From the NCBI RefSeq assembly GCF_037042905.1, contig NC_087251.1, positions 20,462,001 through 20,526,000 of the forward strand: a DNA stretch of 64,000 nucleotides. The letters run 5' to 3'. Both the position numbers and the translations under genes were made by a program. Within the stretch, counting starts at the first letter, position 1; every line of letters starts with the position of its first letter. The notes beneath the pieces are model-generated. The model did not search any database, was not told the DNA's origin, and saw only the letters and a list, made by a program, of their open reading frames with translations. Shown here piece after piece: positions 1-19,800 of this stretch. Source of the DNA: Lytechinus pictus (lineage: Eukaryota).

Positions 1-3000
1 CTCATACATTGCAGAGTATCGTACTGGTATAAGCTTATCCCATTTGATTTGTATTACTCGTACATTGCAGAGTATCATACAGGTATAAGCTTATCCCATT
101 TGATTTCCATAACCTCATACATTACAGAGTATCCTACAGGTATAAGCTTATCCCATTTGATTTGTATTACCTCATACATTGCAGAGAATCATTCAGGTAT
201 AAGCTTATCCCATTTGATTTGAATTACCTCATACATTGCAGAGTATCGTACAGGGATAAGCTTATCCCTTTTGATATGTATTGCCTCATACATTGTAGAG
301 TATCCGACAGGTATAAGCTTATCCCATTTGATTTGTAAAACTCGTACATTGCAGAGTATAGTACTGGTATAAGCTTATCCCTTTTGATTTGTATTGCCTT
401 GTCCACTACAGAGTATCATGCAGGTATAAGCTTATCCCTTTTGATTTGTATTGCCTCATACATTGCAGAGTATCCTGCAGGGATAAGCTTATCCCATTTG
501 ATATGTATAACTTGTACATTGCAGAGTATCGTAGTGGTATAAGCTTATCCCTTTTGATTTGTACTACCTCATACATTGCAGAGTATCGTACTGGTACAAG
601 CTTATCCCATTTGATTTGTATTACTCGTACATTGCAGAGTATCATACAGGTATAAGCTTATCCCATTTGATTTCCATAACCTCATACATTACAGAGTATC
701 CTACAGGTATAAGCTTATCCCATTTGATTTGTATTACCTCATACATTGCAGAGAATCATTCAGGTATAAGCTTATCCCATTTGATTTGAATTACCTCATA
801 CATTGCAGAGTATCGTACAGGGATAAGCTTATCCCTTTTGATATGTATTGCCTCATACATTGTAGAGTATCCGACAGGTATAAGCTTATCCCATTTGATT
901 TGTAAAACTCGTACATTGCAGAGTATAGTACTGGTATAAGCTTATCCCTTTTGATTTGTATTGCCTTGTCCACTACAGAGTATCATGCAGGTATAAGCTT
1001 ATCCCTTTTGATTTGTATTGCCTCATACATTGCAGAGTATCCTGCAGGGATAAGCCTATCCCATTTGATATGTATAACTTGTACATTGCAGAGTATCGTA
1101 CTGGTATAAGCTTATCCCATTTGATTTGTATTACTCGTACATTGCAGAGTATCCTACAGGTATAAGCTTATCCCTTTTGATATGAATTACCTCATACATC
1201 GCAAAGTATCTTACAGGTATAAGCTTATCCCATTTGATATGTATTGCCTCATACATTGTAGAGTATCGTACAGGTATAAGCTTATCCCATTTGATTTGAA
1301 TTACCTCATACACTGCAGAGTATCGTACGGGGATAAGCTTATCCCATTTGATATGTATTGCCTCATACATTGTAGAGTATCGTACAGGTATAAGCTTATC
1401 CCATTTGATTTGAATTACCTCATACACTGCAGAGTATCGTACGGGGATAAGCTTATCCCTTTTGATATGTATTGCCTCATACATTGTAGAGTATCGTACA
1501 GGTATAAGCTTATCCCATTTGACTTGTATTCCTCATACACTGCAGAGTATCGTACGGGGATAAGCTTATCCCTTTTGATATGTATTGCCTCATACATTGT
1601 AGAGTATCCTACAGGTACCGGGTATAAGCTTATCCTTTGGATTTGTATTACCTCATACACTGCAGAGTATCGTACAGGGATAAGCTTATCCCTTTTGATA
1701 TGTATTGCCTCATCCATTGTAGAGTATCGTACAGGTATAAGCTTATCCCATTTGATTTGAATTACCTCATACACTGCAGAGTATCGTACGGGGATAAGCT
1801 TATCCCTTTTGATATGTATTGCCTCATACATTGTAGAGTATCATACAGGTATAAGCTTATCCCATTTGATTTCCATAACCTCATACATTACAGAGTATCC
1901 TACAGGTATAAGCTTATCCCATTTGATTTGTATTACCTCATACATTGCAGAGAATCATTCAGGTATAAGCTTATCCCATTTGATTTGAATTACCTCATAC
2001 ATTGCAGAGTATCGTACAGGGATAAGCTTATCCCTTTTGATATGTATTGCCTCATACATTGTAGAGTATCCTACAGGTATAAGCTTATCCCATTTGATTT
2101 GTAAAACTCGTACATTGCAGAGTATAGTACTGGTATAAGCTTATCCCTTTTGATTTGTATTGCCTTGTCCACTACAGAGTATCATGCAGGTATAAGCTTA
2201 TCCCTTTTGATTTGTATTGCCTCATACATTGCAGAGTATCCTGCAGGGATAAGCTTATCCCATTTGATATGTATAACTTGTACATTGTAGAGTATAGTAG
2301 TGGTATAAGCTTATCCCTTTTGATATGAATTACCTCATACATCGCAGAGTATCTTACAGGTATAAGCTTATCCCATTTGATATGTATTGCCTCATACATT
2401 GTAGAGTATCGTACAGGTATAAGCTTATCCCATTTGATTTGAATTACCTCTTACACTGCAGAGTATCGTACGGGGATAAGCTTATCCCTTTTGATATGTA
2501 TTGCCTCATACATTGTAGAGTATCGTACAGGTATAAGCTTATCCCATTTGACTTGTATTCCTCATACATTGTAGAGTTTCCTACAGGTACCGGGTATAAG
2601 CTTATCCTTTGGATTTGTATTACCTCATACACTGCAGAGTATCGTACTGGTATAAGCTTATCCCATTTGATTTGTATTACTCGTACATTGCAGAGTATCA
2701 TACAGGTATAAGCTTATCCCATTTGATTTCCATAACCTCATACATTACAGAGTATCCTACAGGTATAAGCTTATCCCATTTGATTTTTATTATCTCATAC
2801 ATTGCAGAGAATCATTCAGGTAAAAGCTTATCCCATTTGATTTGAATTACCTCATACATTGCAGAGTATCGTACAGGTATAAGCTTATCCCATTTGATTT
2901 GTAAAACTCGTACATTGCAGAGTATAGTACTGGTATAAGCTTATCCCTTTTGATTTGTATTGCCTTGTCCACTACAGAGTATCATGCAGGTATAAGCTTA

Positions 3001-5070
3001 TCCCTTTTGATTTGTATTGCCTCATACATTGCAGAGTATCCTGCAGGGATAAGCTTATCCCATTTGATATGTATAACCTGTACATTGCAGAGTATCGTAG
3101 TGGTATAAGCTTATCCCTTTTGATTTGTACTACCTCATACATTGCAGAGTATCGTACTGGTATAAGCTTATCCCATTTGATTTGTTTTACTCGTACATTG
3201 CAGAGTATCCTACAGGTATAAGCTTATCCCTTTTGATATGAATTACCTCATACATCGCAGAGTATCTTACATGTATAAGCTTATCCCATTTGATTTGTAT
3301 TGCCTCATACATTACAGAGTATCCTACTGGTATAAGCTTATCCCATTTGATTTGTATTACTCGTACATTGCAGAGAATCATTCAGGTATTAGCTTATCCC
3401 ATTTGATTTGAATTACCGGTACGTCATACATCGCAGAGTTTCATACAGAGATAAGCTTATCCCATTTGATTTGAATTACCTCATACATTGCAGAGTATCG
3501 TAAAGGGATAAGCTTATCCCTTTTGGTATGTATTGCCTCGTACATTGTAGAGTATCCTACAGGTATAAGCTTATCCCATTTGATTTGTAAAACTCGTACA
3601 TTGCAGAGTATAGTACTGGTATAAACTTATCCCTTTTGATTTGTATTGCCTTGTCCACTACAGAGTATCATGCAGGTATAAGCTTATCCCTTTTGGTTTG
3701 TACTACCTCATACATTGCAGAGTATCCTGCAGGGATAAGCTTATCCCATATAATTTGAATTTCTGGTACCTCATACATTGCAAAGTTTCCTACAGGGATA
3801 AGCTTATCCCATTTGATTTGAATTACCTCATACATTGCAGAGTTTCGTACAGGGATAAGCTTATCCCTTTTGATTTGTATTGCCTCATACATTGTAGAGT
3901 ATCGTACAGGGATAAGTTCATCCCGTTTGATTTGTATTACCTCATACATTGCGAAGTATCATACAGGTATAAGCTTATCCCATTTGATTTGAATTTCTTG
4001 TACCTCATACATTGCAAAGTATCCTACAGGGATAAGCTTATCCCTTTTGATTTGTACTATCTCATACATTGCAGAGTATCCTACAGTTACTTGTACAATG
4101 GGGAATGTCATATAGGTATAAGCTTATCCCATTTGATTTGAATTACCGGTACCTCATACATCGCAGAGTGTCATACAGGGAATCTGGATAAGCTTATCCC
4201 ATTTGATTTGTATTGCCTCGTAAATTGTAGAGTGTCATACAGGTATAAGCTTATCCCTTTTGATTTGTATTGCCTCATACATTGTAGAGTATCATACAGG
4301 TATAAGCTTATCCCTTTTGATTTGAATTACCTCATACATTGCAGAGTATCCTACAGGTATAAGCTTATCCCTTTTGATTTGTATAACTTGCACATTGCAG
4401 AGTATCGTAGTGGTATAAGCTTATCCCTTTTGATTTGTACTACCTCATACATTGCAGAGTATCGTACTGGTATAAGCTTATCCCATTTGATTTGTATTAC
4501 TCGTACATTGCAGAGTATCGCACAGGGATAAGCTTATCCCTTTTGATATGTATTGCCTCATACATTGCAGAGTATCAGACAGGGATAAGCTTATCCCTTT
4601 TGATTTGTATTGCCTCATACATTGCAGAGTATCCTACTGGTATAAGCTTATCCCATTTGATTTGTATTACCTCATACATTGCAGAGTATCGTACAGGTAT
4701 AAGCTTATCCCGTTTGATTTGTATTACCTCATACATTGCAGAGTATCAGACAGGGATAAGCTTATCCCTTTTGATTTGTATTGCCTCATACATTGCAGAG
4801 TATCCTACTGGTATAAGCTTATCCCTTTTTGGTGATTCGTACTACCTCATGCAGTGCAGAGTATGATACAGATATAAGCTAATCCCTCAAACTGTCTGGC
4901 TTTCGTGTCGAGGTATAAGCTTATACCCTAATTATCCAGTTTCAATTATATGAGTTTATATGATATACTGGCTACATGACGAGGTATAAGCTTATCCCTA
5001 AAACTATTCTGGTTTTAAAGTCCATGTTTATAACTTATACAAATCCGACCACCTTCAAGATACAAGCTTA
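1..5070. repeat. 57-bp (some 56-bp) tandem minisatellite, roughly 85 units, with palindromic core GG(G/T)ATAAGCTTATCCC; runs off the left window edge
   Basis: Consensus unit ggtataagcttatcccatttgatttgtattacctcatacattgcagagtatcgtaca. ORFs show 19-aa periodicity. Identical ORFs at 224 and 791 give a 567-bp higher-order repeat. Units degenerate after about 4860. Confidence 0.97.
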
Positions 5071-5591
5071 TACATTTTTTCAAACAATTTTGTTTGCTCA
5101 ATGATATTCAATCGTATTTATTGTTGAATAATTGTAAAGTTCTCTTTTGGATTTGTTTTGTGAAATAAATTGTATATCTTTAACCGATTTTGCTCTATTC
5201 TTTCCCAATTTATTTGATGTTTGAATTGCAAGTGTGAATTGTTAGAGTGATTCTTCATGAGTTGACTCAGTGTGAATGATTGAAATTTAAAATGTCACTT
5301 TTTTTTACATGAATGATGTGTTGTAAAATGTTTTTCATTCTTTTTGATATGTCTGAAAAGGAAAAGATATTATTATCCTCGTATTTGTTAAGTAAAATAC
5401 AATTTGGCATAATATTTTGACAAAATCTGGATTTTTCCAGTCCAGATTGAAATAATTTATTGTTATACATATATCCTTAGATGTTTAGATGCCGATGATT
5501 GTGCAAAGTGCTCAATGCTATAGATAGCAGAGCATATAATCATACCTGTCTGTTGAACGTCTGCTACCGGTGGTTTCACGCCCGAACTTGA

Positions 5592-5594
<3 letters not shown>

Positions 5595-5678
<84 letters not shown>

Positions 5679-5712
5679 ATATATGTATGTATATATACAT
5701 ATACACACACAC

Positions 5713-5747
<35 letters not shown>

Positions 5748-5790
5748 TATATATATATGTATATGCATATATCTATACATACATATACAT
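5595..5790. repeat. (AT)n microsatellite
   Basis: Long perfect AT run to about 5671, followed by interrupted AT/AC runs. Confidence 0.97.
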
Positions 5791-5981
5791 ATTATGTGAG
5801 TGTGTGTGTGAATGAAGAGAACAATGATATGGAATAATGTATATATATACATTAAAAATGATTGATACTGTATTTCAGGGTCATTATTAACCTGCTTGGT
5901 TAAAAGTGCACGTTCTAAAATGTGAAGATGAAATTAAGTGAACAGAAATTAACGTAATCAAGGGTTATGCGTTCATTTAAG

Positions 5982-6300
5982 TGACTGACTCTCCTACAGA
6001 AAATGTTGAGGAAACGACCCCAGGGGTGACGACGACAGTAACAACCAGCCCAAGTTTCCTCCCCACATTCGAGGTGACATGGGACACCAGTCGGCTGATG
6101 CACGTCGAAACGGTCGACGTGATCGTGTACGGTTACAGCGAAGACGATGTGGGCGCCCTACAGAAGATAATGACATTGGCAGAGAACATCAGCTACCATG
6201 ATGGTTCTATCAACGTCACAGCACCTTCAACCAACACCAGCTACGAGGTTGGTTTGTTCGGTGTTCTACAGCACCAGGATGTGACGCCATCAAACAATGG
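5982..6300 (+). CDS. Exon: Thr/Pro-rich linker plus beta-rich segment preceding AMOP
   Basis: AG at 5980-5981, GTAAG at 6301. Ends in phase 2, matching the exon at 14245. Confidence 0.75.
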
Positions 6301-9300
6301 GTAAGCTGTAAACTGACTCATATTTGAACCATTGAACTGCAAATAAGAAACTTCATTGTGAGAAGCTGACATTGGAAAGCGTACATCAAAACCGCAATAT
6401 TTGCTTTACATTTGAACGAGGCGAAATTGCCATCTAAAAAAAGAAAGAGATCCAATGATTACAATTCCCAGAATGTGCAGAGAGTTCACTTTTGCCAGTT
6501 AATCAATTCTTAAAATTGAAAGAAAGTGTGGTCAGGTTTATTTTTCAGAGGTTAACGTTCTGAAACATTGACAAATGCATATGTTCTAGAGAAAATATGT
6601 CGAGTATTTTTTATTGGAAAGATGGGGCTTTAATATTTTAAGGATCCTTCAGAGGAAAATAAACTAAAAAGGACTGAAAATTGTGAAGTTTGTCTTGATT
6701 CCTTATTTCAGAGGTAGATTCGTCATACAAAGGGTCTGAAACCAACCATTTTAAAGCACGAAAACAAATCTATATCCTAACGTTTAATGATCTAGATATT
6801 GAAGAAATTTCTTGTCATTTGTACTTATAGTAGAGCGGATTAGCCGAACAATTGTGCAAATTTTGACTAAAGCATGAAACTTTCACAAGTATAAGTATAT
6901 GCCCTAAGATTTATTTTAAAGATGGGAGGTAAATTTTAAAATGCCATTTTCGGCCGTTGCCATGACAACGGATTAATTTCTCAAAAATGACATACATTCC
7001 CATGTAAATGCTAAATAAACATGATATAAATGACCAAAATGATAATTTTTAAGCTCCCAAATGAATATATATAAAATTTAGAAACATTCAAAATTAACAA
7101 GATAGTTCCAATTGGTCCGTTGCCATGGCAACGACTTGTTTTTCCCCAGAAAAATAAAAAAACTGATTAAAAAAACGTTGTAGAATAGGATTTATCTTTA
7201 ATTTTCCCGAATTTTACAGTGTTGAACAATGATATTTTGGTTGCTCAATGTATAAACTACATCTCAAGCCGTTGCCATGGCAACCAAATAACATCAATTT
7301 ACAAAAATTAAATGGTTAACAAGACAATGGACAGGTGGAAAATACAACTGGAAATGACTTAATCTGTATGCTTAAGTTTTGACCCCCTCATTTGAACAAA
7401 AAATACAGAAAGTGTTCTGCAGGAATTCTTTATAAAGATAAAACATTATGTTGCCTTGGTAATGCTTGAATTAAATTTAAAAAACAAATGTTGCAAAGAT
7501 CCCGTTGCCATGGCAACAGCATATTTCCCTCTAGAAAGGTAAAAATATTGATAAAAATGTAGAATACGATCATCATTCCATTTTCAATATTTTTAATGAA
7601 CTAATAAAAATATATGTTTGTGACTGCATTTATAAATATAACATCTTAAGCCATTGCCATGGCAACCAAATAACATCTAATTAAAAAAAATCAATGACAG
7701 GGATGACAGGGTTATGGATAGGGGAAAAATCCAATGAAAATAACTTTTATGCATAAGTTTTGACCTACTCAATTAATTTAGGGGAAACAGTATACAGTGA
7801 GTGTTCTTCATGAACTAATTAGAATGATAAACATTGATGTTACCTTAGTAACACTTGAATTCAACGATAAATGTCAATGTTGCAAATGACCTGTTGCCAT
7901 AGCAACGGCTCATTTACGCAAAAAAGTTCTAGTTTTGATTAGAAAAAGGACTTTGGACTCTGATTTTTCTTTCATTTCCCCTAATTTAATGGTAAGAATT
8001 GATATGTTTGCTGTTAACATACAAACAATATCTGAAGCCATTGTCATGGCAACCAAATTAATCTAATTTGAAAAAAAAAATAACATGGTTGACAACACAA
8101 TGGACAGGTGGAAAATACAATTAGAATTGACTCAATCTGTATGCTTAACTTTTGACCCCCTCATTAGAACAAAAAGTACTTAAAATGTTCTGCTGGAGTT
8201 CTTTAAAAAGATATGAACTTATGTTGCCTTGGTAACACTTGGATTAAATTCTTTTTAAAATGTTACAAAGGGCTCGTTGCCATGGCAACAGCTTATTTCC
8301 CTCTAGAAAGGTAAAAATATTGATAAGAATTTAGAATACAGACATGTATGATCATCTTTCCATTTTCAATAATTTTAAGGTACTAATCGAGATATATATG
8401 TGACTAAATTTATAAATATAACATCTTAGACCATTGCCATGGCAACCAGATAACATCTAATTAAAAAAAAAACATGGATGAGAAGGATATGGACAGGTGA
8501 AAAATACAATGAAAATTCACTTGATGTGCATCACTGTATGCATCAGGATTGACCTCAATTAATCTAGGGGAAACAATACAATGAGTGTTCTGCATGAACT
8601 ATTTATCATTCTAAGAATGATAAACATTGAAGTTGCCTTGGTAATAATTGAATTCGATAAACATCAACGTTGCAAATGACCTGTTGCCATAGCAACTACT
8701 CATTTCCCCAAGAAAAGTACCAGTTTTGATCAGAAAATCTGTAGAATCTGATTTTTTCCTTTCATTTCCCCTAATTTTAGGGTAAGAATGGATATGTTTC
8801 CTGTTAACATTCAAATTATAGCTTAAGCCATTGTCATGGCAACCAAATAACATCTAATTTGAAAAAAATAACATGGTTGACATGATAATGGACAGGTGGA
8901 AAATGCAATCCATTAACTCAAGGTTTGACCCAGTCAATTAATTTTGAACAAAGATTACAGTGGTTTGCATTAGTTCATTAGAATGATAAAATTTGAGGTT
9001 GCCTTGGTAATGCTTGAATTTAATAATAAATATCACTGTTACATATAGCCCGTTGCCATGGCAATGACTCCTTTTTTCCCGAATAAAGTACCAAATTTGA
9101 TCGAAAAACAGTTTAGAATCTGCATTTTGTCATAAATTTCCCCTAATTTTAGAGTGCAAAGCATTATGTTTGCTGTTGATATACAAATAACCATTGGTTG
9201 TCCTTGTAACTTGTTCTAATGCATTAAACCATGGTTTTATGATGATGGTTTAGACATAAAAATCATATTCCCCAGACAGATATTGAACAAACTATGTCCT

Positions 9301-12300
9301 AATTTATTATTTCACTTTTGAAACTATGGTTTAGACACCAAAATCATATCTCACAGGTGAATATAAAAGGAGTTATTCCACTTTTAAGTATCAGCAGCCA
9401 TTTTAGAATAGTTTTTGGAAGCCATATTGGATTTTCGAATACACCTGACCGTCATTGTAACTTGTACTAATATTGTTAGACTCTTGAAACCAATGATTTA
9501 GACACCAAAATATTATCCTCCAGGCCAATATGAAATGAGCTATGTCCGCTTTAGGTATAAGCAACCATTTTAGATTCAATTTTTTGAAGCCATCTTGGAT
9601 TTTTGGACATTCCAGACCACTGGCTTTCCCTGTAACTTGGTCCAATGTACTACTTGATCCTTAAAACCAATGAATAGAAACCAAATTAAAGCCATTTTAT
9701 CAAGTAATGGATGAATTGTGGATTTTTAGCCTATGGCACCCACTGAGGGCACCATCTTGGAATACCCTTGCTTAAATTATTTTTAACCTTTCAACCAGTA
9801 AAGGTATTTTTTATTTTATTTGACGAGTCTACTTTTCATGTAAAATAACCAGTGAATAGATTACACTTGGCGTTGAATAGATTCGTATGTTACTTTAAAA
9901 ATGATCACAGTATTACAAAATTTTCTTCTTCAAAATCAGCAGTGCAATTTTGAGGGGGCCAGATATGACATATCAAGCAAAATTTACTTTAAAATGTTCT
10001 CACCGAGCCAGCGACAGAGCAAAAATTTCCAAATTTTTCCTTTTTGGTATATTATTCGTAAAATAATCATATTTTATCCATCTCTCTTTCACTTTCTCTG
10101 TATTCTTTCTTGATAATGATTTTTTTTCTTTTTTGGGAGGGGGGGGGGGAGACGGGTTGCAAATTCCCGGGAATTTTCTTGATGGAAACTTTCCATGGGA
10201 ATAAACGTGACTTTTGTGGGAATTTTTTTTTTAATTTTCGGCAATTTTCATGAATTTTTAAAGAAATTATGGGAATTTTCACAAAGTAACGATTTTCTGA
10301 CATTTGTATGCAGGAATTAAAAGGTGTATCCTGGCAGATGATGCCTAATAGTGCTTTGCTATCATATTTCAAGCCAAGTATGCTAAAACAGTCGAACAAG
10401 GAAGGATTTCATGATTTCATGATCTCCATGTAAAAGTTGATTTACTGTATTTACCTTGATTAGGATATCAAGACCATGTCTACTCCTCAAATAGACTTAA
10501 GATTTTGATTCATCAACCCCTATAATCCCCTTAGATATTGATATGATGAACAGCTTTAAAACACAAATCACCCCAAAACGCTCTCTTCAAAATGGCCGCC
10601 TGCGAATACTTTGAACGTAATTGTCCAGCATCAAAATTAGAGTTTCGGGAATTTATTTGAGCCCAAAAAAGTCTGATGTGATTTTTGTAGGTCTTATTTC
10701 GATGCCATGTATAATGAAATAAGATGGTGCTTATCATGTAGCATATTTATGTTCAGCAACCTCCTATAAGGGAAAAGGAAATAAATAAACATATTTTTAT
10801 CAAAATTTGTACTTTTCTGGAGCCATTTGTAACATTGATATTCATCATTATGTTCAAGCATTACCAAAACAAAAGTAATTTTTGTCATCCTAATGAAATC
10901 ATGCATAACACTTAATGTAACTTTTGTTCAAAATTAAAAGAGTAGGTCAAACCTTACGCATATTCAGTTAATTTTATTGTATTTTCCTTCGGTCCATTAT
11001 CTTGTCAGCTATGTTTTTTTTGTAAATGAAATGTTTTGTTATTGCCATTTCAACGCCTTTAAATGTTATTTATACATTTAACAACAAACATGTACGTGTA
11101 TGTTTGACACCCTAACCTTAGTGGAAATGAATGAAAAATAAGATTCTACTAGGTATTTTTTTTTATCAAAGATGGTATTTTCTGGGGGAAAAACGATCCG
11201 TTACACATTTGCAAAAAAATGATATTAAATTCAACCATTACCAAGGCAGCATCAGTTTTTATCATGCTATTGTACTCATGCAGAACACTTACTGTAATTT
11301 TTGTTCAAAACTTAAAGGAGAATGAAACCTTTGGAACAAGATAGCTTGTGTGAAAACAGAAAAATCTAAGAAACAGATCAATGAAAGTTTGAGAAAAATC
11401 GGACAAATAATGAGAAAGTTATGAGCTTTTGAATATTGCGATCACTAATGCTATGGAGATCCTCACATTGGCAATGCGACAAAGATGTGTGATGTCACTC
11501 TTGAACAACTCTCCCCATTACTTTAGTATATATTTCACTTAAATTGCCTCTTTTATTACATCTATCAGTAGAACATGTATTCTTTCTATAGGAGGGCATG
11601 TAATACAGATTTTTAAAGAATACATCATGGATAAAGAGTTTGTATCACCATACGAAAAAGCAAAAAGACACATTTTCAGGGTCCATCAAAGGGAAAGTTG
11701 TTCATGTGTGACATCACACATCCTTGTAGCGTTGCCAATGGGAGGATCTCCATAGCATTAGAGATTGCAATATTCAAATGCTCATAACTTTCTTATTATT
11801 TGTCTGATTTTTCTCAAACTGTCTTTGTTCTTATTCTTTGATTTTTCTGTTTCGACACTAGCCTACTTGTTCCAAAGGTTTCATTCCCCTTTAATGACTG
11901 GTCAAACATTATGGAGCTTTTAAAAGTAAACCTTTATTTTACATCCCACCTGACCATTATCATTTCAACAGTAATTTTTTTTTGTATTTATAAATTACAT
12001 CTTGATTGGTTGCCAAGGCAATGGCTGAAGATGTTATCTACATATTAACCGCAAACATATATTTTCTAACACCCTTAACTTAAGGGAAATGAAAGAAAAA
12101 TCAGATTTTATCATGTTTTTATTTATCAAAGCTGCTGATACTTTTCTGGGGGAAATGAGCTGTTGCCATGGCAACAGAACATTTGAATTATTAATATTTA
12201 TCATTTAATTCAAGAATTACCAAGGCAACATCAATTTATTATTCTAATGAACTCATGCAGAATGCTTAGTGAATTTTTTGTTTAAAATTAAATGACTAGC

Positions 12301-15300
12301 CAAACCTTTCGCATATTGAGTTATATTTGTATTTTCCACCTGTCCATGATCTTGTCATCCAAATTTTTATTTTTTTGTGAATTAGATATTATTTGGTTGC
12401 CATGGCAATAGCATTAGATTTTATTTAAACAATTTGCATCAAACATATCTATGTTTAACACACTAAGATTGGGGGAAATGCAAGAAAAACCAGATTCTAT
12501 AGTCCTTTTTTAATAAAAACTGGTACTAAATGATCCGTTGCTATGGCAACAGGCAATTTGCAACATTGATATTTATCGTTGAATTCAAGTATTACCAAGG
12601 CAACATCAATCTGTATCATTCCAATTAGTTCATGCAGAATACTCACTGTATTATTTCCCCTAAATTAATTGAGTAGGTCAAACCTTATGCATATACATAA
12701 GTTAATTTTCATTGTACTTTTCACCTATCCATAACCTTGTCATCCCTGCTGTTGTTTTTTAAATGAGATGTTATCTGGTTGCCATGGCAATGGCTTAAGA
12801 TGTTATATTTATAAATGTAGTCACAATCATATTTTGATTAGTTCCTTAAAAATATTGAAAATGGAATGATGATCATACATGTATTCTATATTTTTATCAA
12901 TATTTTTACCTTTCTAGAGGGAAATAAACTGTTGCCATGGCAACGGGATCTTTGCAACATTCGTTTTTTTTATTTAATTCAAGCATTACCAAGGCAACAT
13001 AATGTTTTATCTTTATAAAGAACTCCTGCAGAACACATTCTGTATTTTTTGTTCAAATGAGGGGGTCAAAACTTAAGCATACAGATTAAGTCATTTCCAG
13101 TTGTATTTTCCACCTGTCGATTGTCTAGTTTACCATGTTATTTTTGTAAATTAGATGTTATTTGGTTGCCATGGCAATGGCTTGAGATGTAGTTTATACA
13201 TTGAGCAACCAAAATATCGTTGTTTTACACTGTAAAATTAGGGAAAATTAAAGATAAATCCTATTCTACAACGTTTTTTTAATCAGTTTTTTTTTTCTGG
13301 GGAAAAACAAGCCGTTGCCATGGCAACGGACCAATTGGAACTATCTTGTTAATTTTGAATGTTTCTAAATTTTATATATATTCAATTGGGAACTTGAAAA
13401 TTATAATTTTGGTCATCTATGTCATGTTTATTTACCATTTACATGGGAATGTATGTCATTTTTGAGAAATTAATCCGTTGCCATGGCAACGGCCGAAAAT
13501 GGCATTTTGAAATTTACCTCCCACCTTTAAAATAAATCTTACGGCATATACTAATACTTGTGAAAGTTTCATGCTTTAGTCAAAATTTGCACAATTGTTG
13601 TGATTTTTGGAGCTAATCCGCTCTACTATTAATGGGATGTCTGTTTAATATTGTTTGCTAATTGTAATGCCTAATTTTGTTTTGATTATTTTCATTCATT
13701 CGATACACACATGTAAATACTTTCAACTTTAAATATGAAATCCGCAATAAATTACTGTACAACGAGAAACGCTTTCGTAAGAGACGCTCATTGGCATGAT
13801 GGTCTTTTGAAAATATATCTAGAGTGGCGTAATGAGCAAAAAAAGGAAGAAAATGGCGTATCGGGCAATTCTTTTTTAAAGTTGCAAGCAAATGAAGCGA
13901 GCGAGCGAAAATATCGACATTTTTATTACAAAAGTCAAATTTTGTCATAGATATGAAACATTCATCCATCCGTAATGTAACGCCACTTTTCCCTTCCGTG
14001 GAAGGCACTAGCGTACCTACGGGGGGGGGGGGGGGCAGAGGGGCAGTCTGCCCCCCCCCCCCCCCTGACGAGCCACCACCCATTCAAAGCCACCACCCAT
14101 GCATGTATCCCTGCCCCCCCCTGACGAGCTTGAAATACCTTTTTGCCCCCCCCCCCCTGACGAAAATCCTGGAAAATCCTAGGTACGCCACTGGTGGAAG
14201 GCCACAACTACAATTCACGTTTTTTGTCTATCCTTTTGTTTAAGTCTTGATGGACGTGCTGGTGTGTGGAGTGAGGTCCATGTTCTTCAGTGGCTCAGAG
14301 ACCACGATCCTGCTCCTTGGTGTGCCCAGTGGATCACCGACAATGACAAGGAGAACGATTTCATCGACGCTGCTCCGGCTTGCCCATGCACGCTCTGGGT
14401 CGCAATGCTCGACTTTGCTCGGTTTCGGCGTGATCCTAAATGTTATCAAGGCTCTAGCAGGGAAGATAACTGTCAGTTCCGACCAGGAGCCGTTCATTGT
14501 GTTCGGGCCATCCAACACAGGTGATGCGAAAATCCAATGTCTTATTTGTTTTTATTTAAACAAGTGCACCAATCTAAAATGTGTCCAAAATATATCAGAT
14601 TATAGACTGCATTTAGATTACTGTAACGATGTCGGTAGCCCTTTTTTATATCAGTGTCTTTACTCAAGGTCAAATATCGCCAGCTAAGTAATCACAGGAG
14701 CCGAAGAGCTTCCCTGTAGGTGACAAAATATTCGCCAATAAATTACAAAAATATACTACTACAATATTCATATTTAATGTATAAGTTTCAAACAAATGCT
14801 GTTTTAGACGATATCAAAGTTTCTAAAGAATGGCATGTATAGCATAAAATAAATTAATGCAAATTTATTCCTGGATATATTTGTCGTGTATTTCAACAGT
14901 GGGTTTATTTCTTGTGGTACGTTGTGAAAACCTTGAACTTGCAGGTGGTGATAACCCAAAACCACAAAAAATTGTCAATTTCCTGACCTCCAACAACTCC
15001 AAACCTCTAACCTACTCTCTTTTGTTTCTTTTTGTGTTTGTCACATTGCTTCCCTCCCTCTATCAGTTTATCAATTGAGGATTATTTATTTTCTTTATTT
15101 TTCGCTTCTCCCTTTCTCCCCCCCCCCCCTTTGTTTGTCTCTTGCTTCGGGGAATGCCTTAACTTTTTTGCTATTCTTTTTTACAAATCCTTGTTGAATG
15201 TGGCAATGCACAGTTCATTGATGAATAGTTTAAGAGAATCAATTGTTATTACGTTCATTTGAATAACAATCATGTTTTTGACATTTACTGATGGCATGGT

Positions 15301-16780
15301 ACAGAATGAAAAGAGCGAATCAGGTCTTTAAAAAAAATTATACAGCAAGTTCATATTTATAAGAAAAAGATAAAGGACCGAATTGGGGGAATTCCCAAAA
15401 GACATGCTGGAAATGTAAGTCACGATGTCATCATTTGGAAATTCCATATACTTTAAATTATTATTAGTCGAAGTGGAAATATCACCAACGGAAAGAGATC
15501 AATTTGTTTGACCGACCAGTCTTGTCCGTAATTAACAATAAAAATGAAAAACCTGTAGCATGTTTAAATCTGTTTTTAATATGAAAATTGTGTTAATTTT
15601 TGATCAAGTTGTTTCATGTTATATTACCAGAATGTTGGTGGTGCCATTGGAATCCAGTTATGTAGTTTTTTTTTCGAGAATTTTGTTTAATATTTTGTTT
15701 TTTCCATGAATATAGCATATAAACTGTGTGAAAAATTTTCACGTAAACATATACGAAAATATTCGAAGATTGCGGAATGTTAGAATTATACAATTTTGAA
15801 AAGAATAGAAAATATTGAAGGACAAAAGCCTGAAAAAATATGTATACAAAGACAACTGCAACATACAATAAGTTATGAATAATGCTTATTGCTTATTGTT
15901 TCAACTCCTACATATAAAACAAATTAATATTGATGTAATTTAATATTCAAAAATCTTTATCATGAACTATGTTTGAAAATGATTCGATGAATATGTTTTC
16001 AATGATGTTATTAACATTTCTCATTTTCTTTGCATTCGTAATTAATTGTCTAACTGATGTCATAATAAACCTTCAACTCGGATATTATTTATTTCAGTGA
16101 GTTAGGTGGCGGGCAAGAATGCTGTTACGACAGTGACGGTAACATCAGTAACGCTCAAATATTCCAAGCAGGAGGAGGATTTGCTCACCGTTATCATCAC
16201 AACGGCATTCGTCCTTACATAAATGCAACGCAGGTAATCCTCAAACATGGCATAGATATGATAAACATAAGATCAAATGCGGGTGCCAAACAATCTACAA
16301 TCATATCACGAATTCCATAAATGATTATGCGTTTCATATTTAACACCTTTTTATCCAATAAAAAAAAAAACAGACTTTAATGTTGTATTTAACTCAGTTA
16401 TTTCTATCGCTTTAGGACAACAAAATTGTGTTCATTAACATACTAATCTTGATGTTTGTCTCAAGATCACTCCGCACCACTGTCTTTTAACTTAATGAAT
16501 TCGCAAACAATGGGCATTTATCATGAAAATATTTGAATTTAGACTATTTTCGTATCGGAACAGGTCCCCTTCCTGTCGCATTTTATGGCTGATGTTTTAC
16601 CGTGGACATACTGCTGCCACCTAGGAAATCAGGTCCCCGACGCAACTGATCTGAGCAGTGGGTGTCTCCAGTATACAGAGAGGAGGCCATCACAGCTCTG
16701 CAATCATTATGTACCCCCAAACCTCGGTAAGTGACATTAATGCCTTCATTCGTTTGCCATCATTCCTTCATTCATTCATT

Positions 16781-16829
<49 letters not shown>

Positions 16830-19800
16830 TGACTAGTAGTAGTAGTAGTAGTAGTAGTAGTTGACTAGTAGTAGTAGTAGTAGTAGTAGTAATAGTAGTA
16901 GTAGTAGTAGTAGTAGTAGTAGGTCATGGTAGTAGTAGTATTTAGTATAAAACCTTCATACTTGTATTTCAAGCATATTTTATGGTGTTTTAAGGGCTAA
17001 ATAATATTTCTTTCATTTTCAATTTTTATAAGCCATGTGCATGTCAATTATATTTATCTTTGCACACAGCATTGGGAAACGGCGACCCACACATCATTAC
17101 TCTGGACATGAAGAAATACACATTCAACGGACATGGTGAATTCATTCTTCTTAAGACCCTGGATGAATCGTTTGTTCTTCACACAAGAACTACACCACTT
17201 CAAGGTAATTTCTAATTGGTAAAATGAATGATGAACATATAACAAAATGCGAGCCCGGCACTGTTTGTAAGATAATGGGTGCCTTTGGAGATACTACGAA
17301 CCAAAAATAAATTGTAATTATGATGTTTGATTAACCTCTATATTGAATTAAAATCCTTTGTCGTCCTGTTTAGAGATTTTTTTTTTATCATTGCAGATGT
17401 GAACGCGACAGTTTTTGTAGCCGTTGCCGCCCAGTGTAATGATAGTGACGTCATCCATGTTGAGATTAATGAAGAAAGGGTCATGGATGCATACGTTCGT
17501 CCTCAGCAGGGTGGTGACTTCGAACGGATTGATTTTGAGCAGGCGACAGCTAGGAATTATGAAGGTACTAAAACATTTTTCACTCACTTTAGACCATGAG
17601 CATATTTTTTTTAAACTTGTCTTTTTATGTCAGTATCTCTGTATTGCCTCACTAATTATTGTTTTTAGGTCCATAGCCAATCATTTAACATATTGATTAT
17701 GGGTTTCACATTGATATTCAATTAATATTCACTTGGGCCTTTCAAACATTAACGATATACTGTTAAAAGTTCGTAATTTTCTTTTTTGTAATCTTTTGTT
17801 ACGTTTGGTTGTTTTCATACATTTATTAGGTTTTTTCGTATATCAATTCCTTCACTTGAGTATACAATTCAATAATCGGTTGTAACTATTTGGTAATCTT
17901 TTCAAAGTTTATTCCCAATGCAGATGACAATGCCTCTCGTTCCCTAAAATCATCATGAAAAATCTCAAACCTAGTTTATTTTGTTAGCTACATGTAGTTT
18001 ATTTGTTATCTCTTTGTCAAGGTGTATCTGTCATAGGTCTCAATATATCGTCCAATGGTATACTTGTGGCCTTCGAGGGTGGCTCAGGTTTAAAACTCAT
18101 GGCTGCTGAGGGTGCCCTCATCATTCAGTTGGTGCCTCATCCCTCATTCAGGGAGCAGACACGTGGTCTGATGGGCACTTGGACTGATGACGTCAGTGAT
18201 GACTTCATGACGCCGGATGGGACTGTCTTGTCACCTAACTCATCGACGGAAGAAATATACTTTCAGTTTGGACTCAAATGTAAGACAACTTTTTATTATT
18301 ATAATATATCATATCATATTATATTATTTCATATTTTGCTACCTGATGTTAAAAATATATATTCATACTATGATTCATACTACAATGGTAGAAGTAATAG
18401 TAGAAAGGGCAATGGTAATATCAGAAACAGGGTAAGTCGTAATTATATTGTGAGTTCAGAATAATTTCCTTAATGAAATAACGAAATATGATAATAAATA
18501 GGGTGAACTTTTTCACCTATAATAAATATAAATGTTGCATATGTATGTATCTGATATGCATATATGTATATGCATCTCACAATTGACCTTATGATAAACT
18601 AAGGAAGTTATTCGAGCCAGTGGAATAATATTATTTGACTGTAGGTGCACAGTATAGAACTTTTTAGTAGTTTTGGCATTGATCAATTATGTTGCATTAC
18701 ATTGCAGATTTACCGTTTTATATATGTTCTTTTTCAGGGAACGTCTCTGAGGATAATTCATTGCTCTACTATCCGGAGGGAATAAATCAGAATAATACTT
18801 CAGACTTGAATTACGTACCAATGTTTGAAGCTACAGCTAACCCTAACATTAACCAAAGCCTTGTCCAAGATATCTGCAATGGCGATGAGTTCTGCATCTT
18901 TGATCTGCAAGTTACCGGGAGTATCAGCTTTGCTCAAAGTACAGCCAATTCGCTGCAGGAATTCCAGGAGGCCCAAGAAGCATTCAATATAGGTAAGAAA
19001 TATTAAATCCCAAGCTAGCTTATTTTATCCATTGATTACCTTTGACGTTGTTCGTTAATTTTCTGTTCATTGGTGGTAGGGCACCTTTAGTCACGACGGC
19101 TCATTTATTCACAAATACCTTAAATGTCAATTTAAACCAAATTTTCCACACAAAGTCCACATCCATTTGTGTTCTTTGAAATAGTCGCTGAAAAACCCAA
19201 ACATTATAGTCACCCTTTTCTGTCCAATTTATTAGTTTTTATATTTCCATTTCACGTTGTAATGATTCCCTTAATAGTGTATGTAATTGGATAGATCAAG
19301 ACATACTCTTCATGGTGAATTTGAGACTGAAGGAGTGTGGCCCGTTGAATCAGATACCTTATTTTCTGTTCAGCTACCTCATTTCTGATTAGCCGAGTAC
19401 TGATTCTTAAAATACATTGGATGCAGAACTTCCATTGGTATCAGCATGCCCGGATCAATTAGAAAGAGTGTCCTCTAATCGTTTACCTCTCCTCATGCCT
19501 GTTGTATTACTTTCTTTACAGTGACATGTCCTACTCTTGGTACACCTGACCTTGGGAATGCTATCATCAGTAGATACACCCCTGGAGGTGAAGCGAACTA
19601 CACGTGTATTGAAGGCTATCTGATCAGTGATGATGCCACAATAATGTGTCAATCAGATGGATCATGGAGTAATGATGTCATTCCACGTTGTATTGGTAGG
19701 TTTATTATGTAATATCTGATCATAGCATCTCGGGCATAGCATAGCGAGTTTATCATACCGTTCCCATCAGTCACATGCATTGTCAGTGTTAAGTGTTTGA

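Follow-up and report, generated by a model that had tools for sequence, protein, structure and literature searches.

A young foldback-like DNA transposon of Lytechinus pictus with conserved X-box-like palindromes in its inverted arms

Introduction

Transposons with arms built of repeats and with multiple subterminal binding sites are known already. En/Spm (CACTA) and Ac/Ds elements carry many short protein-binding motifs, in both orientations, within the subterminal few hundred bp, where they are needed in cis, and En/Spm makes 3-bp target-site duplications; the duplications of P and FB elements measure 7–9 bp, that of Drosophila Foldback being 9 bp. Sites for transcription factors also travel on transposons, as do CTCF sites in SINEs and p53 or OCT4 sites in LTRs. 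The THAP domain of Galileo is reported to bind at several sites, which lie in the tandem repeats of the element's long, foldback-like inverted repeats (PMC3688188). In PMC10045372, which cites Kapitonov and Jurka (2010) and Kojima (2020), AcademX, a lineage of the Academ superfamily, is described as making 3–4-bp duplications and encoding a nuclease.

Here we describe an element found in a 64,000-nt stretch of the Lytechinus pictus genome (NC_087251.1, positions 20,462,001 to 20,526,000; hereafter the window, in whose coordinates positions are given). Its arms are arrays of 14-bp palindromes. Unusually, the conserved palindrome matches, in every letter, the optimal site of RFX, an ancient regulator of the host. 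A literature search found no published description of transposon arms built from X-box palindromes.

Results

The element is 6.8 kb long (6828–13628) and is bounded by a 17-bp terminal inverted repeat, TAGTAGAGCGGATTAGC, at 6828–6844 on the plus strand and at 13612–13628 on the minus strand. A 3-bp target-site duplication, TTA, flanks it at 6825–6827, where the sequence ...actTTA meets TAGTAGAG, and at 13629–13631, where CTCTACTA meets TTAatg. The right end is also marked by 22 RNA reads (run X13) that leave into other sequence exactly behind 13628, as is expected of copies at other loci. No stop-to-stop frame longer than 113 aa exists within 6828–13628, and a search of two canonical 8.3-kb copies of the family for frames of at least 120 aa found none. 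With inverted termini, a duplication, no transposase, many near-identical copies and termini common to ORF-bearing relatives, the element is a young, non-coding, non-autonomous cut-and-paste DNA transposon. It lies whole within an intron of 7,944 bp (6300–14243, plus strand, GT..AG) between an upstream exon at 5999–6299 and a downstream exon at 14244–14520, the latter encoding an AMOP domain (frame 14183–14524, E 7.9e-13). The joint 6299>14244 is present in one contig each of two runs, X1 (3297 nt) and X2 (1623 nt), and downstream of these exons, also on the plus strand, lie VWD, MUC4 C8-3 and three HYR exons. This bears out an earlier reading of the sequence alone that had placed the element in an intron of a cell-surface protein gene.

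Genome-wide, the exact terminus TAGTAGAGCGGATTAGC occurs 281 times (137 forward and 144 reverse), and the reversed pattern 0 times. The sequence-only reading had proposed a search with this terminus as the route to an autonomous partner; it returned these termini and no such partner. The first 100 termini listed comprise 36 pairs and 28 solos, with a median paired length of 7.5 kb, and the complete copies are on the order of one hundred. Perfect 3-bp duplications, varied in sequence, flank 12 of the 13 complete copies examined. The 40 best-scored genomic matches to the first 503 bp of the element are 96–100% identical to it, and many copies of the family are 99–100% alike, so something moved this non-coding family recently.

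Alignment to a canonical copy (L032) shows that the family's full form is 8.3 kb long and that the window copy derives from it by an internal deletion of ~1.46 kb, with the junction at about 9191: the left arm is collinear with L032 positions 93–2466 at 99%, and window 9191–13628 matches L032 3927–8386 at 98.8%. The left arm (6828–9190, plus strand) consists of a terminal ~290 bp followed by about five and a half subrepeats of ~390 bp, and carries 17 X-box-like sites, at 6956, 7119, 7271, 7450, 7504, 7653, 7839, 7893, 8040, 8223, 8276, 8433, 8632, 8683, 8830, 8998 and 9052. The inverted right arm (11950–13628, minus strand) has about four subrepeats and 12 sites, at 12009, 12162, 12216, 12396, 12537, 12591, 12778, 12931, 12985, 13165, 13314 and 13477. 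Over the outer ~750 bp the arms are 92–96% complementary; 6847–7159 pairs with 13287–13599 at 96% and 7296–7567 with 12881–13152 at 95%. The units are spaced 369–407 bp apart and are mutually only 60–91% alike, and with default settings Tandem Repeats Finder did not report any array. The interior (9191–11950) is non-coding and holds, besides the deletion junction, short tandem pieces (about 9200–9720) and degenerate subrepeat remnants (e.g. at 11041). It also holds an inverted-repeat module (11295–11911) with 221-nt arms that are 86% complementary. The canonical family includes this module. It represents a repeat of far higher abundance, its summed contig depth being 4,000–26,000 as against about 10–200 in the rest of the element. 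The earlier description of a mobile element with foldback-like arms of subrepeats is supported.

All eight perfect copies of GTTGCCATGGCAAC that had been reported from the sequence were recovered where they had been placed (starts at 7119, 7271, 7504, 8276, 12162, 12931, 13314 and 13477). The rest of the 64 kb has no perfect copy, and none appeared in any of 100 shuffles. Allowing up to two mismatches, 23 sites are found in the window, 22 of them in 6828–13628 (0.16 expected); with up to three, 32 are found, 29 of them in the element (1.87 expected). Each subrepeat carries two to three palindromes, about 29 per copy, which we call types A, B and C in the order in which they occur, at about 0, +150 and +333 bp of the unit. 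The first begins 129 bp from the element end. The 14-mer is identical to the classic palindromic RFX site as given in PMC3414849 and PMC4168999, in line with its earlier identification as the canonical RFX X-box. All three site types fit the degenerate consensus RYYRYY N1-3 RRNRAC of PMC4168999 on one strand; scanned with N2 spacing, this consensus gave 29 distinct sites in the 6.8-kb element versus 11 in the other 57 kb, while the stricter GYTRYYNNRRHRAC gave 35 strand matches versus 2.31 expected. For an arbitrary 14-bp palindrome to be exactly the optimal site of a host factor is an unlikely coincidence, which speaks against a transposase as its binder; the coincidence weighs less than it first seems because the window was picked from many. 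Genome-wide there are 1,852 perfect sites (0 for the reversed control), and 30 of the first 50 listed on contig 1 stand in clusters of the family's type. Judged from these clusters, a large share of the strongest RFX words in the genome appears to come from the family.

The palindromes had been noted to look better conserved than the DNA between them, and an alignment of copies agrees. Of 16 arms aligned, 10 non-redundant ones were used, after dropping the reference arm, three duplicates (98–99%) and two short arms. Motif columns had a mean pairwise identity of 0.839 versus 0.681 elsewhere, a value reached by 24 of 10,000 random placements. When arms were compared with an ORF-bearing relative, motif columns were 83–90% identical and the others 60–62% (Fisher p 1e-6 to 1e-11). 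When the first 1,150 bp are ranked in non-overlapping 14-bp windows, six of the top seven are X-box sites; the five A/B sites score 0.975–1.0, the best G+C-rich non-motif window scores 0.895, and conservation does not follow G+C content (r = -0.07). In these alignments, then, conservation across diverged subfamilies is highest in the palindrome columns of the arms. Departures from the optimum that are specific to a type are kept as well: of 45 type-B sites, 42 have A in position 1, and all 36 type-C sites have TT at the centre. About 30 bp beside the type-B sites are also conserved. Two further conserved arm blocks, GCTAAATAAACATG (0.986) and TAATTTCTCCAAAA (0.96), are not X-boxes; they could be the true sites of a transposase, which would count against a transposase as the binder of the palindromes. 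Constraint after insertion was not detected: in a set of 20 copies with 99% or more identity to their consensus, 5 of 196 motif columns and 72 of 1,794 other columns had private substitutions (p = 0.43; low power). By this low-power test, constraint appears to act on the transposon lineage and not visibly on inserted copies.

ORF-bearing relatives share with the window's family the terminus type TAGT..G.G..TTAG and the 3-bp duplication (ATA and TAA in their case). They encode a protein of ~1,100–1,500 aa with an HTH-like segment, a central, weakly transposase-like domain, a FEN/XPG-like nuclease domain and a CXC tail. A sister element in L055 (positions 228–7731) has an intact ORF of 1498 aa (50% identical), the terminus TAGTCAGGGGCCTTAG, which agrees with that of the window's family at 11 of 16 positions, and the duplication TAG. 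Its subterminal tandem repeats, of 178 bp, carry a different palindrome (GCTAATTTATGTAAATTAGC and relatives); we looked in them for the X-box and found none. They include ATGCAAAT, which we take to be a POU octamer, and it could be that elements of this lineage commonly build their arms from host-factor sites (X-box here, ATGCAAAT there). An intact transposase of the X-box lineage was not found, which counts against the family's own transposase as the binder of the palindromes. The ORF-bearing copies examined (L057; a copy nested in L036+L037; L046 over a 590-aa match) carry one or two in-frame stops. These copies align only to residues 346–1492 of the 1498-aa relative, and the N-terminal, cysteine-rich 345 aa has 14 genomic matches, none of them at X-box-lineage loci.

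A model of the C-terminal domain (L055 residues 1011–1498, pTM 0.83) matches flap endonucleases, XRN1/2, T5 exonuclease, Rad2/XPG, EXO1 and FEN1 (Foldseek E from 7.7e-5, probability 1.00). A Foldseek search for an Academ-type DDE (RNase H-like) domain found nothing. With DUF6589, the only Pfam candidate for such a domain, L055 scored 24.9 bits, which is under the cut-off of 27, and the homologue P0022 scored 27.1 bits; the top row in VIA-align was P element transposase (Z 6.1, 212 residues), a value under the tool's safe level. The relatives have the XPG-like nuclease domain, though the window copy encodes nothing, and a duplication within the 3–4 bp of AcademX, so that their termini, duplications and protein domains fit an AcademX-like lineage of the Academ superfamily. 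Two other assignments were set aside: the Drosophila Foldback family, given the 3-bp duplication and the AcademX-like relatives, and CACTA/En-Spm, given termini that read TAGTAG... and no match to Transposase_21/24 in Pfam. The earlier label of foldback transposon is apt for the long inverted arms of tandem subrepeats and the mostly non-coding copies, and fails as a family name, 12 of 13 copies having 3-bp duplications. A transposase with an RFX-type DNA-binding domain was likewise rejected. Pfam found no RFX domain in the transposon ORFs, and none of the 9 genome-wide matches to PF02257 (RFX_DNA_binding), which fall at about 6 intron-split loci, is at a transposon ORF locus.

Discussion

We propose that the palindromes are putative cis-acting subterminal binding sites and hold, with moderate confidence, that a transposase is the more likely binder. 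The X-box-like sites would be bound by a protein and required in cis for the element's propagation, and, standing at multiple subterminal positions in the two arms, they would label the ends and assist in bringing them together, in a mode analogous to the THAP sites of Galileo or the subterminal motifs of En/Spm or Ac/Ds. The family's own transposase would be the likelier protein to bind them; if it does read the sites, their identity with a host RFX site would be a case of convergence or else a secondary benefit. The L055 sister element, with the same architecture and a different palindrome, favours such element-specific sites over a general use of host RFX.

Subterminal binding may, however, have been handed over to the host, with RFX dimers as the functional binder on the ~29 sites of each copy, a possibility that we take seriously while thinking it unlikely. 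RFX would then condense the arms or pair them, and any transposase of the family that recognises the TAGT..TTAG termini could act; alternatively, it would drive expression or open chromatin in RFX-rich cells (ciliated embryo, testis). The identity of the word with the classic site, the fit of all three site types to the degenerate consensus and the RFX genes of the host all speak for this. So does the conservation of the sites in lineages that encode nothing, together with the absence of an intact cognate transposase from the assembly, which is easier to explain by a host protein on the sites and a related transposase on the termini; the L055 terminus shares 11 of 16 positions, and the octamer-like ATGCAAAT of the L055 repeat is also in its favour. 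Mammals offer a germline rationale, RFX2 and RFX4 being described as active in testis in PMC4408798. Yet the sister element has kept the architecture and not the X-box, and the conserved departures of types B and C, with the ~30 bp beside type B, exceed what an RFX footprint needs. RNA reads on the arms are near zero (0–0.4 per bin in about 6% of two runs), a weak objection that concerns the transcript level only. To our knowledge, dependence of synapsis on a sequence-specific transcription factor of the host has not been demonstrated for any DNA transposon. More specifically, and rather doubtfully, the family may have given up its own subterminal recognition, its perfect X-box arrays recruiting host RFX dimers while a related transposase acts at the TAGT..TTAG termini. 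This would explain why the sites are the best-kept part of non-coding lineages, why an intact cognate transposase is missing and why the word is the RFX optimum; as a corollary, the ATGCAAAT-bearing repeats of the L055 sister would do likewise with a POU factor.

That the palindromes have no function at all, being alike through recent common descent, gene conversion among subrepeats or a mutational or structural bias of palindromes, strikes us as very improbable. Many copies are indeed very young, and conversion is possible in subrepeat arrays and inverted arms. However, the excess conservation persists between lineages whose arms are otherwise only 60–62% identical, is independent of base composition and is sharply confined to the 14-bp sites together with a small number of other blocks, where conversion would even out whole tracts; a 14-bp palindrome would, moreover, form at most a weak hairpin of 5–6 bp. 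Selection by the host, for copies that spread multi-X-box enhancers or RFX sinks, is in our view very improbable. The abundance of perfect sites in the genome, absent from the reversed control, and their clustering in the family's manner could be cited for it. Against it, copies that are 99–100% alike are too young to have been shaped by host selection, private mutations are not significantly rarer in motif columns (with the low power noted above), and conservation between transposon subfamilies reflects selection on the element rather than on loci. The window copy itself is placed centrally in an intron of 8 kb, and the gene is not of ciliary type.

If a transposase reads the sites, a mobile element has converged on the specificity of a host factor, and competition between RFX and transposase at the arms is predicted. 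If RFX reads them, this would be a rare DNA transposon dependent on a sequence-specific host transcription factor, and thousands of strong RFX sites would be mobile, which bears on how ciliary and germline networks gain sites or are buffered. The family is also a worked example of an AcademX-like lineage in its termini, duplications and domain layout.

Among known systems, Galileo (P superfamily), FB and Tetris of Drosophila likewise have long inverted arms of tandem subrepeats and mostly non-coding copies. They differ from the window's family in terminus type and encoded protein, and P and FB elements in their 7–9-bp duplication as against 3 bp; the window's family has, for its part, ~390-bp subrepeats and repeats a palindrome of 14 bp that is also the optimal site of a host factor. 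The THAP sites of Galileo are given as beginning about 70 bp from the end (PMC3688188), and the first site here at 129 bp. With AcademX, as described in PMC10045372, the family shares long elements, a 3-bp duplication within the range of 3–4 bp and, in its relatives, a FEN/XPG-like nuclease domain; that description does not mention arms of palindrome arrays. MITEs are similar in logic, and at 6.8–8.3 kb the window's family is far larger. En/Spm and Ac/Ds share the many subterminal motifs in both orientations, whereas En/Spm has CACTA rather than TAGTAG... termini, and here the arrays span 1.7–2.4 kb and the motif is a perfect palindrome. The X-box of ciliary promoters is identical to GTTGCCATGGCAAC and fits the degenerate consensus; in ciliary genes it is normally single and near the gene start, while here about 29 copies per element, set by its repeats, lie in an intron rather than a promoter. 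As with other transposon-borne factor sites, one repeat family appears to give a large share of one factor's strong sites. The CTCF, p53 and OCT4 cases are mostly parts of promoters or enhancers of retroelements, and here the sites appear to be conserved cis-elements in the arms of a non-coding DNA transposon.

X-box sites are arrayed in the arms of the element

The X-box array noticed in the sequence-only reading is correct and lies far above chance. That reading had counted eight perfect copies of the 14-mer GTTGCCATGGCAAC; all eight (8/8) start where it had placed them. The remainder of the 64-kb window has no further perfect copy, and 100 shuffles of the sequence yielded none. When two mismatches were allowed, 22 of the 23 matches in the window fell within the element (6828–13628), and with three mismatches 29 of 32 did so, against 1.87 expected. 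Passages of PMC3414849 and PMC4168999 quote GTTGCCATGGCAAC as the classic palindromic Rfx site; the degenerate X-box consensus with a 2-base spacer, quoted in the same passages, has 29 separate hits in the element and 11 in the other 57 kb.

Three kinds of site recur in the arms: A, (C)CGTTGCCATGGCAAC; B, ATTGCCATGGCAAC then CAAATAACATC; and C, GTTGCCTTGGTAAT then GCTTGAAT. They are placed at approximately 0, +150 and +333 bp within a unit whose period is 369–407 bp; the left arm has 17 X-box-like sites and the right arm 12. The arms are inverted repeats, 92–96% complementary over the outer ~750 bp. Tandem Repeats Finder at default settings reported no array in 6000–14500 because the units are only 60–91% alike; the subrepeat arrays were detected by a separate repeat search. 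An alignment of 44 units was used for the unit layout only, since the motifs were its anchors and it is biased toward motif conservation.

The element belongs to a family of non-coding transposons

The element ends in a 17-bp inverted repeat, TAGTAGAGCGGATTAGC, with TTA flanking both sides. Among 13 complete copies with this terminus (the window copy and 12 others), 12 have a perfect 3-bp target duplication, which varies from copy to copy (TTT, TAC, TAT, TGA, GAA, ATA, CTT, TTA); the sole exception, a contig 4 copy with a nested insertion, has unmatched 3-bp flanks. Genome-wide (811.7 Mb, 368 contigs) the exact terminus was found 137 times in forward and 144 times in reverse orientation, with 0 matches for the reversed control. 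The first 100 termini listed comprise 36 pairs spanning 1.6–14.8 kb (median 7.5 kb) and 28 solo ends. The best 40 of 871 candidate matches to the first 503 bp of the element are 96–100% identical, and the family is young. Terminus and arrays are common to several subfamilies at 78–89% identity. The modal form of the family is 8.3 kb long (loci L031 and L032); the window copy is collinear with it apart from an internal deletion of 1.46 kb that has its junction near 9191. It has no coding capacity, its longest stop-to-stop frame being 113 aa, and neither 8.3-kb copy has a frame of 120 aa or more.

The description of the element as a foldback transposon holds in part. It was right to call it a mobile element with foldback-like arms; it is not Foldback proper, and we assign it instead to an AcademX-like lineage (below). 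A Helitron or retroelement origin is ruled out by the inverted termini and 3-bp duplication, PIF/Harbinger by the lack of a DDE_Tnp_4 domain and by duplications that are not TWA-specific, and CACTA by its different termini.

Inside the window element, 11295–11911 is an inverted-repeat module with 221-nt arms that are 86% complementary. Its summed depth in two contig runs was 4,000–26,000, against 10–200 for the remainder of the element; it had 5–16 raw RNA reads per bin, and many reads continue into other sequence at 11312 and 11894/5. This module is a separate, highly abundant MITE-like repeat carried by the canonical family. A 10.65-kb family copy on contig 4 (L038+L039), the one with the unmatched 3-bp flanks, is interrupted by an insertion in which a 700-aa frame and a 317-aa frame each occur twice, as inverted copies. 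By eye, the YVDD motif of a reverse transcriptase and a GIY-YIG-like motif can be recognized in these frames; going by these motifs, the insertion looks Penelope-like.

The element lies in an intron of a cell-surface-type gene

On the + strand, frames downstream of the element match AMOP (14183–14524), VWD, the mucin-4 C8-3 domain and HYR repeats. In one contig from each of the sequencing runs X1 and X2, 5999–6299 is spliced directly to 14244–14520. Between the two pieces lie 7,944 skipped bases with GT..AG at their ends; the element is therefore intronic, as had been proposed from the sequence. The run records do not label X1 and X2 as RNA, but the spliced form of the contigs points to it. 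In raw RNA reads from two further runs, of which about 6% each was read, the arms had almost no depth. A search for RNA data sets containing the queried stretch listed none.

Within 14183–30000 the host gene runs on the + strand from AMOP, VWD and MUC4 C8-3 into an extended run of HYR-domain exon triplets that are nearly identical; the three HYR exon types repeat at ~20.1–21.9, 22.0–23.9, 24.0–26.7 and 29.4 kb. Upstream of the element, the window opens with 4.9 kb of a 57-bp minisatellite (1–4887; ~72–86 copies, 83% matches), and an (AT)n tract lies after it at 5595–5792. At 9428–9730, raw RNA reads came from one strand only, at a depth of 7–10; a joint 9730>9581 (150 back) with 15 extra letters was present in 63 and 50 reads, and run-offs occurred at 9603 and 9702. 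The reads seem to come from a transcribed repeat, short tandem or dispersed, whose sequence is not that of the window copy.

The palindromes are conserved across the lineage

Conservation was measured on 16 arms aligned over their first 1.3–1.75 kb, with site positions taken from L032, a copy of the window's family; scores refer to the arms remaining after L032 (as the source of positions), three 98–99% duplicates and two short arms were left out. Mean pairwise identity was 0.839 in motif columns against 0.681 in other columns, in agreement with the earlier claim that the motifs are better conserved than their spacers. When as many windows were placed at random, only 24 of 10,000 trials reached the motif value. 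Over the first 1.15 kb, the stretch where all arms are in register, the five A/B sites score 0.975–1.0, and X-box sites account for six of the seven top non-overlapping 14-bp windows. Conservation did not correlate with G+C (r = -0.07), and G+C-rich non-motif windows all scored ≤0.895. Against the ORF-bearing element, the most distant relative, motif columns are 83–90% identical and others 60–62% (Fisher p 1e-6 to 1e-11). Departures from the perfect palindrome are kept as well, with A at position 1 in 42 of 45 type B sites and a TT centre in all 36 type C sites (36/36); only B and C counts from the site census are used, the class A count being inflated by both-strand reading of palindromes. 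Approximately 30 bp adjoining the B sites are also well conserved. At the level of the transposon lineage, then, the palindromes are constrained.

For changes after insertion, 20 of 29 oriented copies were kept (at least 99% like the consensus) and nine dropped for <99% identity or large indels; one locus, L023, lacked the 20-mer end. Private substitutions fell in 5 of 196 motif columns and 72 of 1,794 others (p = 0.43), and shared variants in 0 of 196 and 31 of 1,794 (p = 0.07), both with low power. No constraint after insertion was apparent in this low-power comparison of 20 young copies.

Genome-wide there are 1,852 perfect copies of GTTGCCATGGCAAC and 0 of the reversed control; from base composition we estimate roughly one chance copy. 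Among the first 50 sites listed on contig 1, clusters with the family's spacing account for 30, and 17 are within or next to elements with exact termini, so that a large fraction of the strongest RFX words sits on the family and its relatives. Contig 1 also has X-box clusters without the exact 17-mer terminus, at 22.75, 23.81, 23.82 and 31.16 Mb; these may be further subfamilies. No account of X-box arrays in the arms of a DNA transposon emerged from our literature search, and what it found on GTTGCCATGGCAAC concerns ciliary genes.

ORF-bearing relatives encode a protein with a nuclease-like domain

The exact-terminus copies examined contain no transposase; the two longest carry nested insertions. 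One of the nested insertions, that on contig 5, is a relative in its own right, with termini TAGTRGGGTGGCTWAGG, the duplication ATA, 1.2-kb arms that are 90% inverted and carry X-box arrays, and a ~1,100-aa frame with two stops inside. Another copy, at positions 1612–8878 of locus L057, is flanked by the duplication TAA; it contains 11 X-box-like sites, and its frame is broken by one stop. The X-box-lineage frames align to residues 346–1492 only of a 1498-aa relative, and the 14 genome matches of its cysteine-rich N-terminal 345 aa include none at X-box-lineage loci. Since the lineage's frames are without this N-terminal part, whose matches lie elsewhere, no intact cognate transposase of the X-box lineage was found in the genome. 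Around a 1347-aa relative (L056), whose N-terminal exon is at the locus edge, no TAGT..TTAG terminus was present in the surrounding 10 kb. A metagenome scan returned three partial, distant relatives, all without X-box.

The ORF protein has at least 844 homologues (E < 1e-5), all unnamed and typically 1,400–1,530 aa long, from hagfish, eels, crabs, sea anemones, abalone and many metagenomic contigs. The homologues listed (P0001–P0120) include proteins at 58–66% identity in animals as distant as hagfish, deep-sea eel, porcelain crab, pipefish, sea anemone and abalone, together with many short metagenomic contigs. The patchy distribution and high identity suggest that the transposon lineage may have spread horizontally.

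The predicted model of the C-terminal 488 aa (pTM 0.83) matched flap endonucleases, XRN1/2, T5 exonuclease, Rad2/XPG, EXO1 and FEN1 in Foldseek (E from 7.7e-5, probability 1.00, TM 0.3–0.58). The model of the central 630 aa (pTM 0.67) had no Foldseek match at E 0.001 or better; with VIA-align the P element transposase ranked first, at Z 6.1 and 212 residues, in a range where by the tool's own account matches may be chance, as were lower rows for Hermes and RAG1 and small HTH/Myb-like matches at residues 16–73. Pfam gave nothing on the ORF pieces, or DUF6589 alone, weakly, at or just under the cut-off. PDB sequence searches gave no usable match (one disregarded hit at E 0.3 with a single protein, 0 with a profile of A1), and the ESM Atlas returned unnamed 'hypothetical protein' clusters only. 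An RFX-type domain in the transposase is not supported: Pfam gives none in the ORFs, and the PF02257 matches in the genome lie away from the ORF loci. Since passages of PMC10045372 describe AcademX elements as having 3–4-bp duplications and encoding a nuclease, we place the lineage as AcademX-like, on the basis of its 3-bp duplications and nuclease-like domain and with the DDE domain unconfirmed.

A sister element has the same design with another word

The 1498-aa frame is intact, and 50% identical, in a sister element at positions 228–7731 of locus L055 (contig 8), which is apparently single-copy. Its terminus, TAGTCAGGGGCCTTAG, has TAGT, G.G and TTAG in common with the other two terminus types, and its duplication is TAG. 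No X-box is present in it within two mismatches. The left end instead has 3.6 copies of a 178-bp tandem unit, each with the near-perfect palindrome GCTAATTTATGTAAATTAGC, and the right end has repeats with ATGCTAATTTATGCAAAT; the latter contains ATGCAAAT, which we take to be the POU octamer. Both the X-box family and L055 combine one short terminus type, a 3-bp duplication and palindrome-bearing subterminal tandem units. Because L055 has this design with other palindromes and no X-box, the architecture is common and the word different, as would be expected for binding sites co-evolving with the element's own protein.

Candidate readers of the palindromes

As cis-elements of the transposon, the palindromes are under constraint. 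We give an even chance to their being read by the element family's transposase, as its putative binding sites. A putative functional use of host RFX as the reader is possible but less likely in our estimate. In its favour, the word is identical to the RFX optimum, and the host has RFX genes, with nine PF02257 matches at ~6 intron-split loci. Sites are kept in lineages without coding capacity, and copies are 99–100% alike even though an intact cognate transposase did not turn up; other conserved arm blocks could be the transposase's own sites, and the L055 repeat has its presumed POU octamer. In mammals, according to passages of PMC4408798, RFX2 and RFX4 act in the testis. However, the conserved non-optimal variants and flanks exceed the needs of an RFX footprint, and the word is changed in the sister element. 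Host co-option and lack of any function share the remaining probability.

Recognition by the family's own transposase would have a likeness in Galileo, where, according to passages of PMC3688188, several sites bound by the THAP domain lie in the tandem repeats that make up long foldback-like ends. Both elements have several sites in subterminal tandem repeats of such ends; in Galileo these are bound by the THAP domain, whereas those of the X-box element are putative binding sites.
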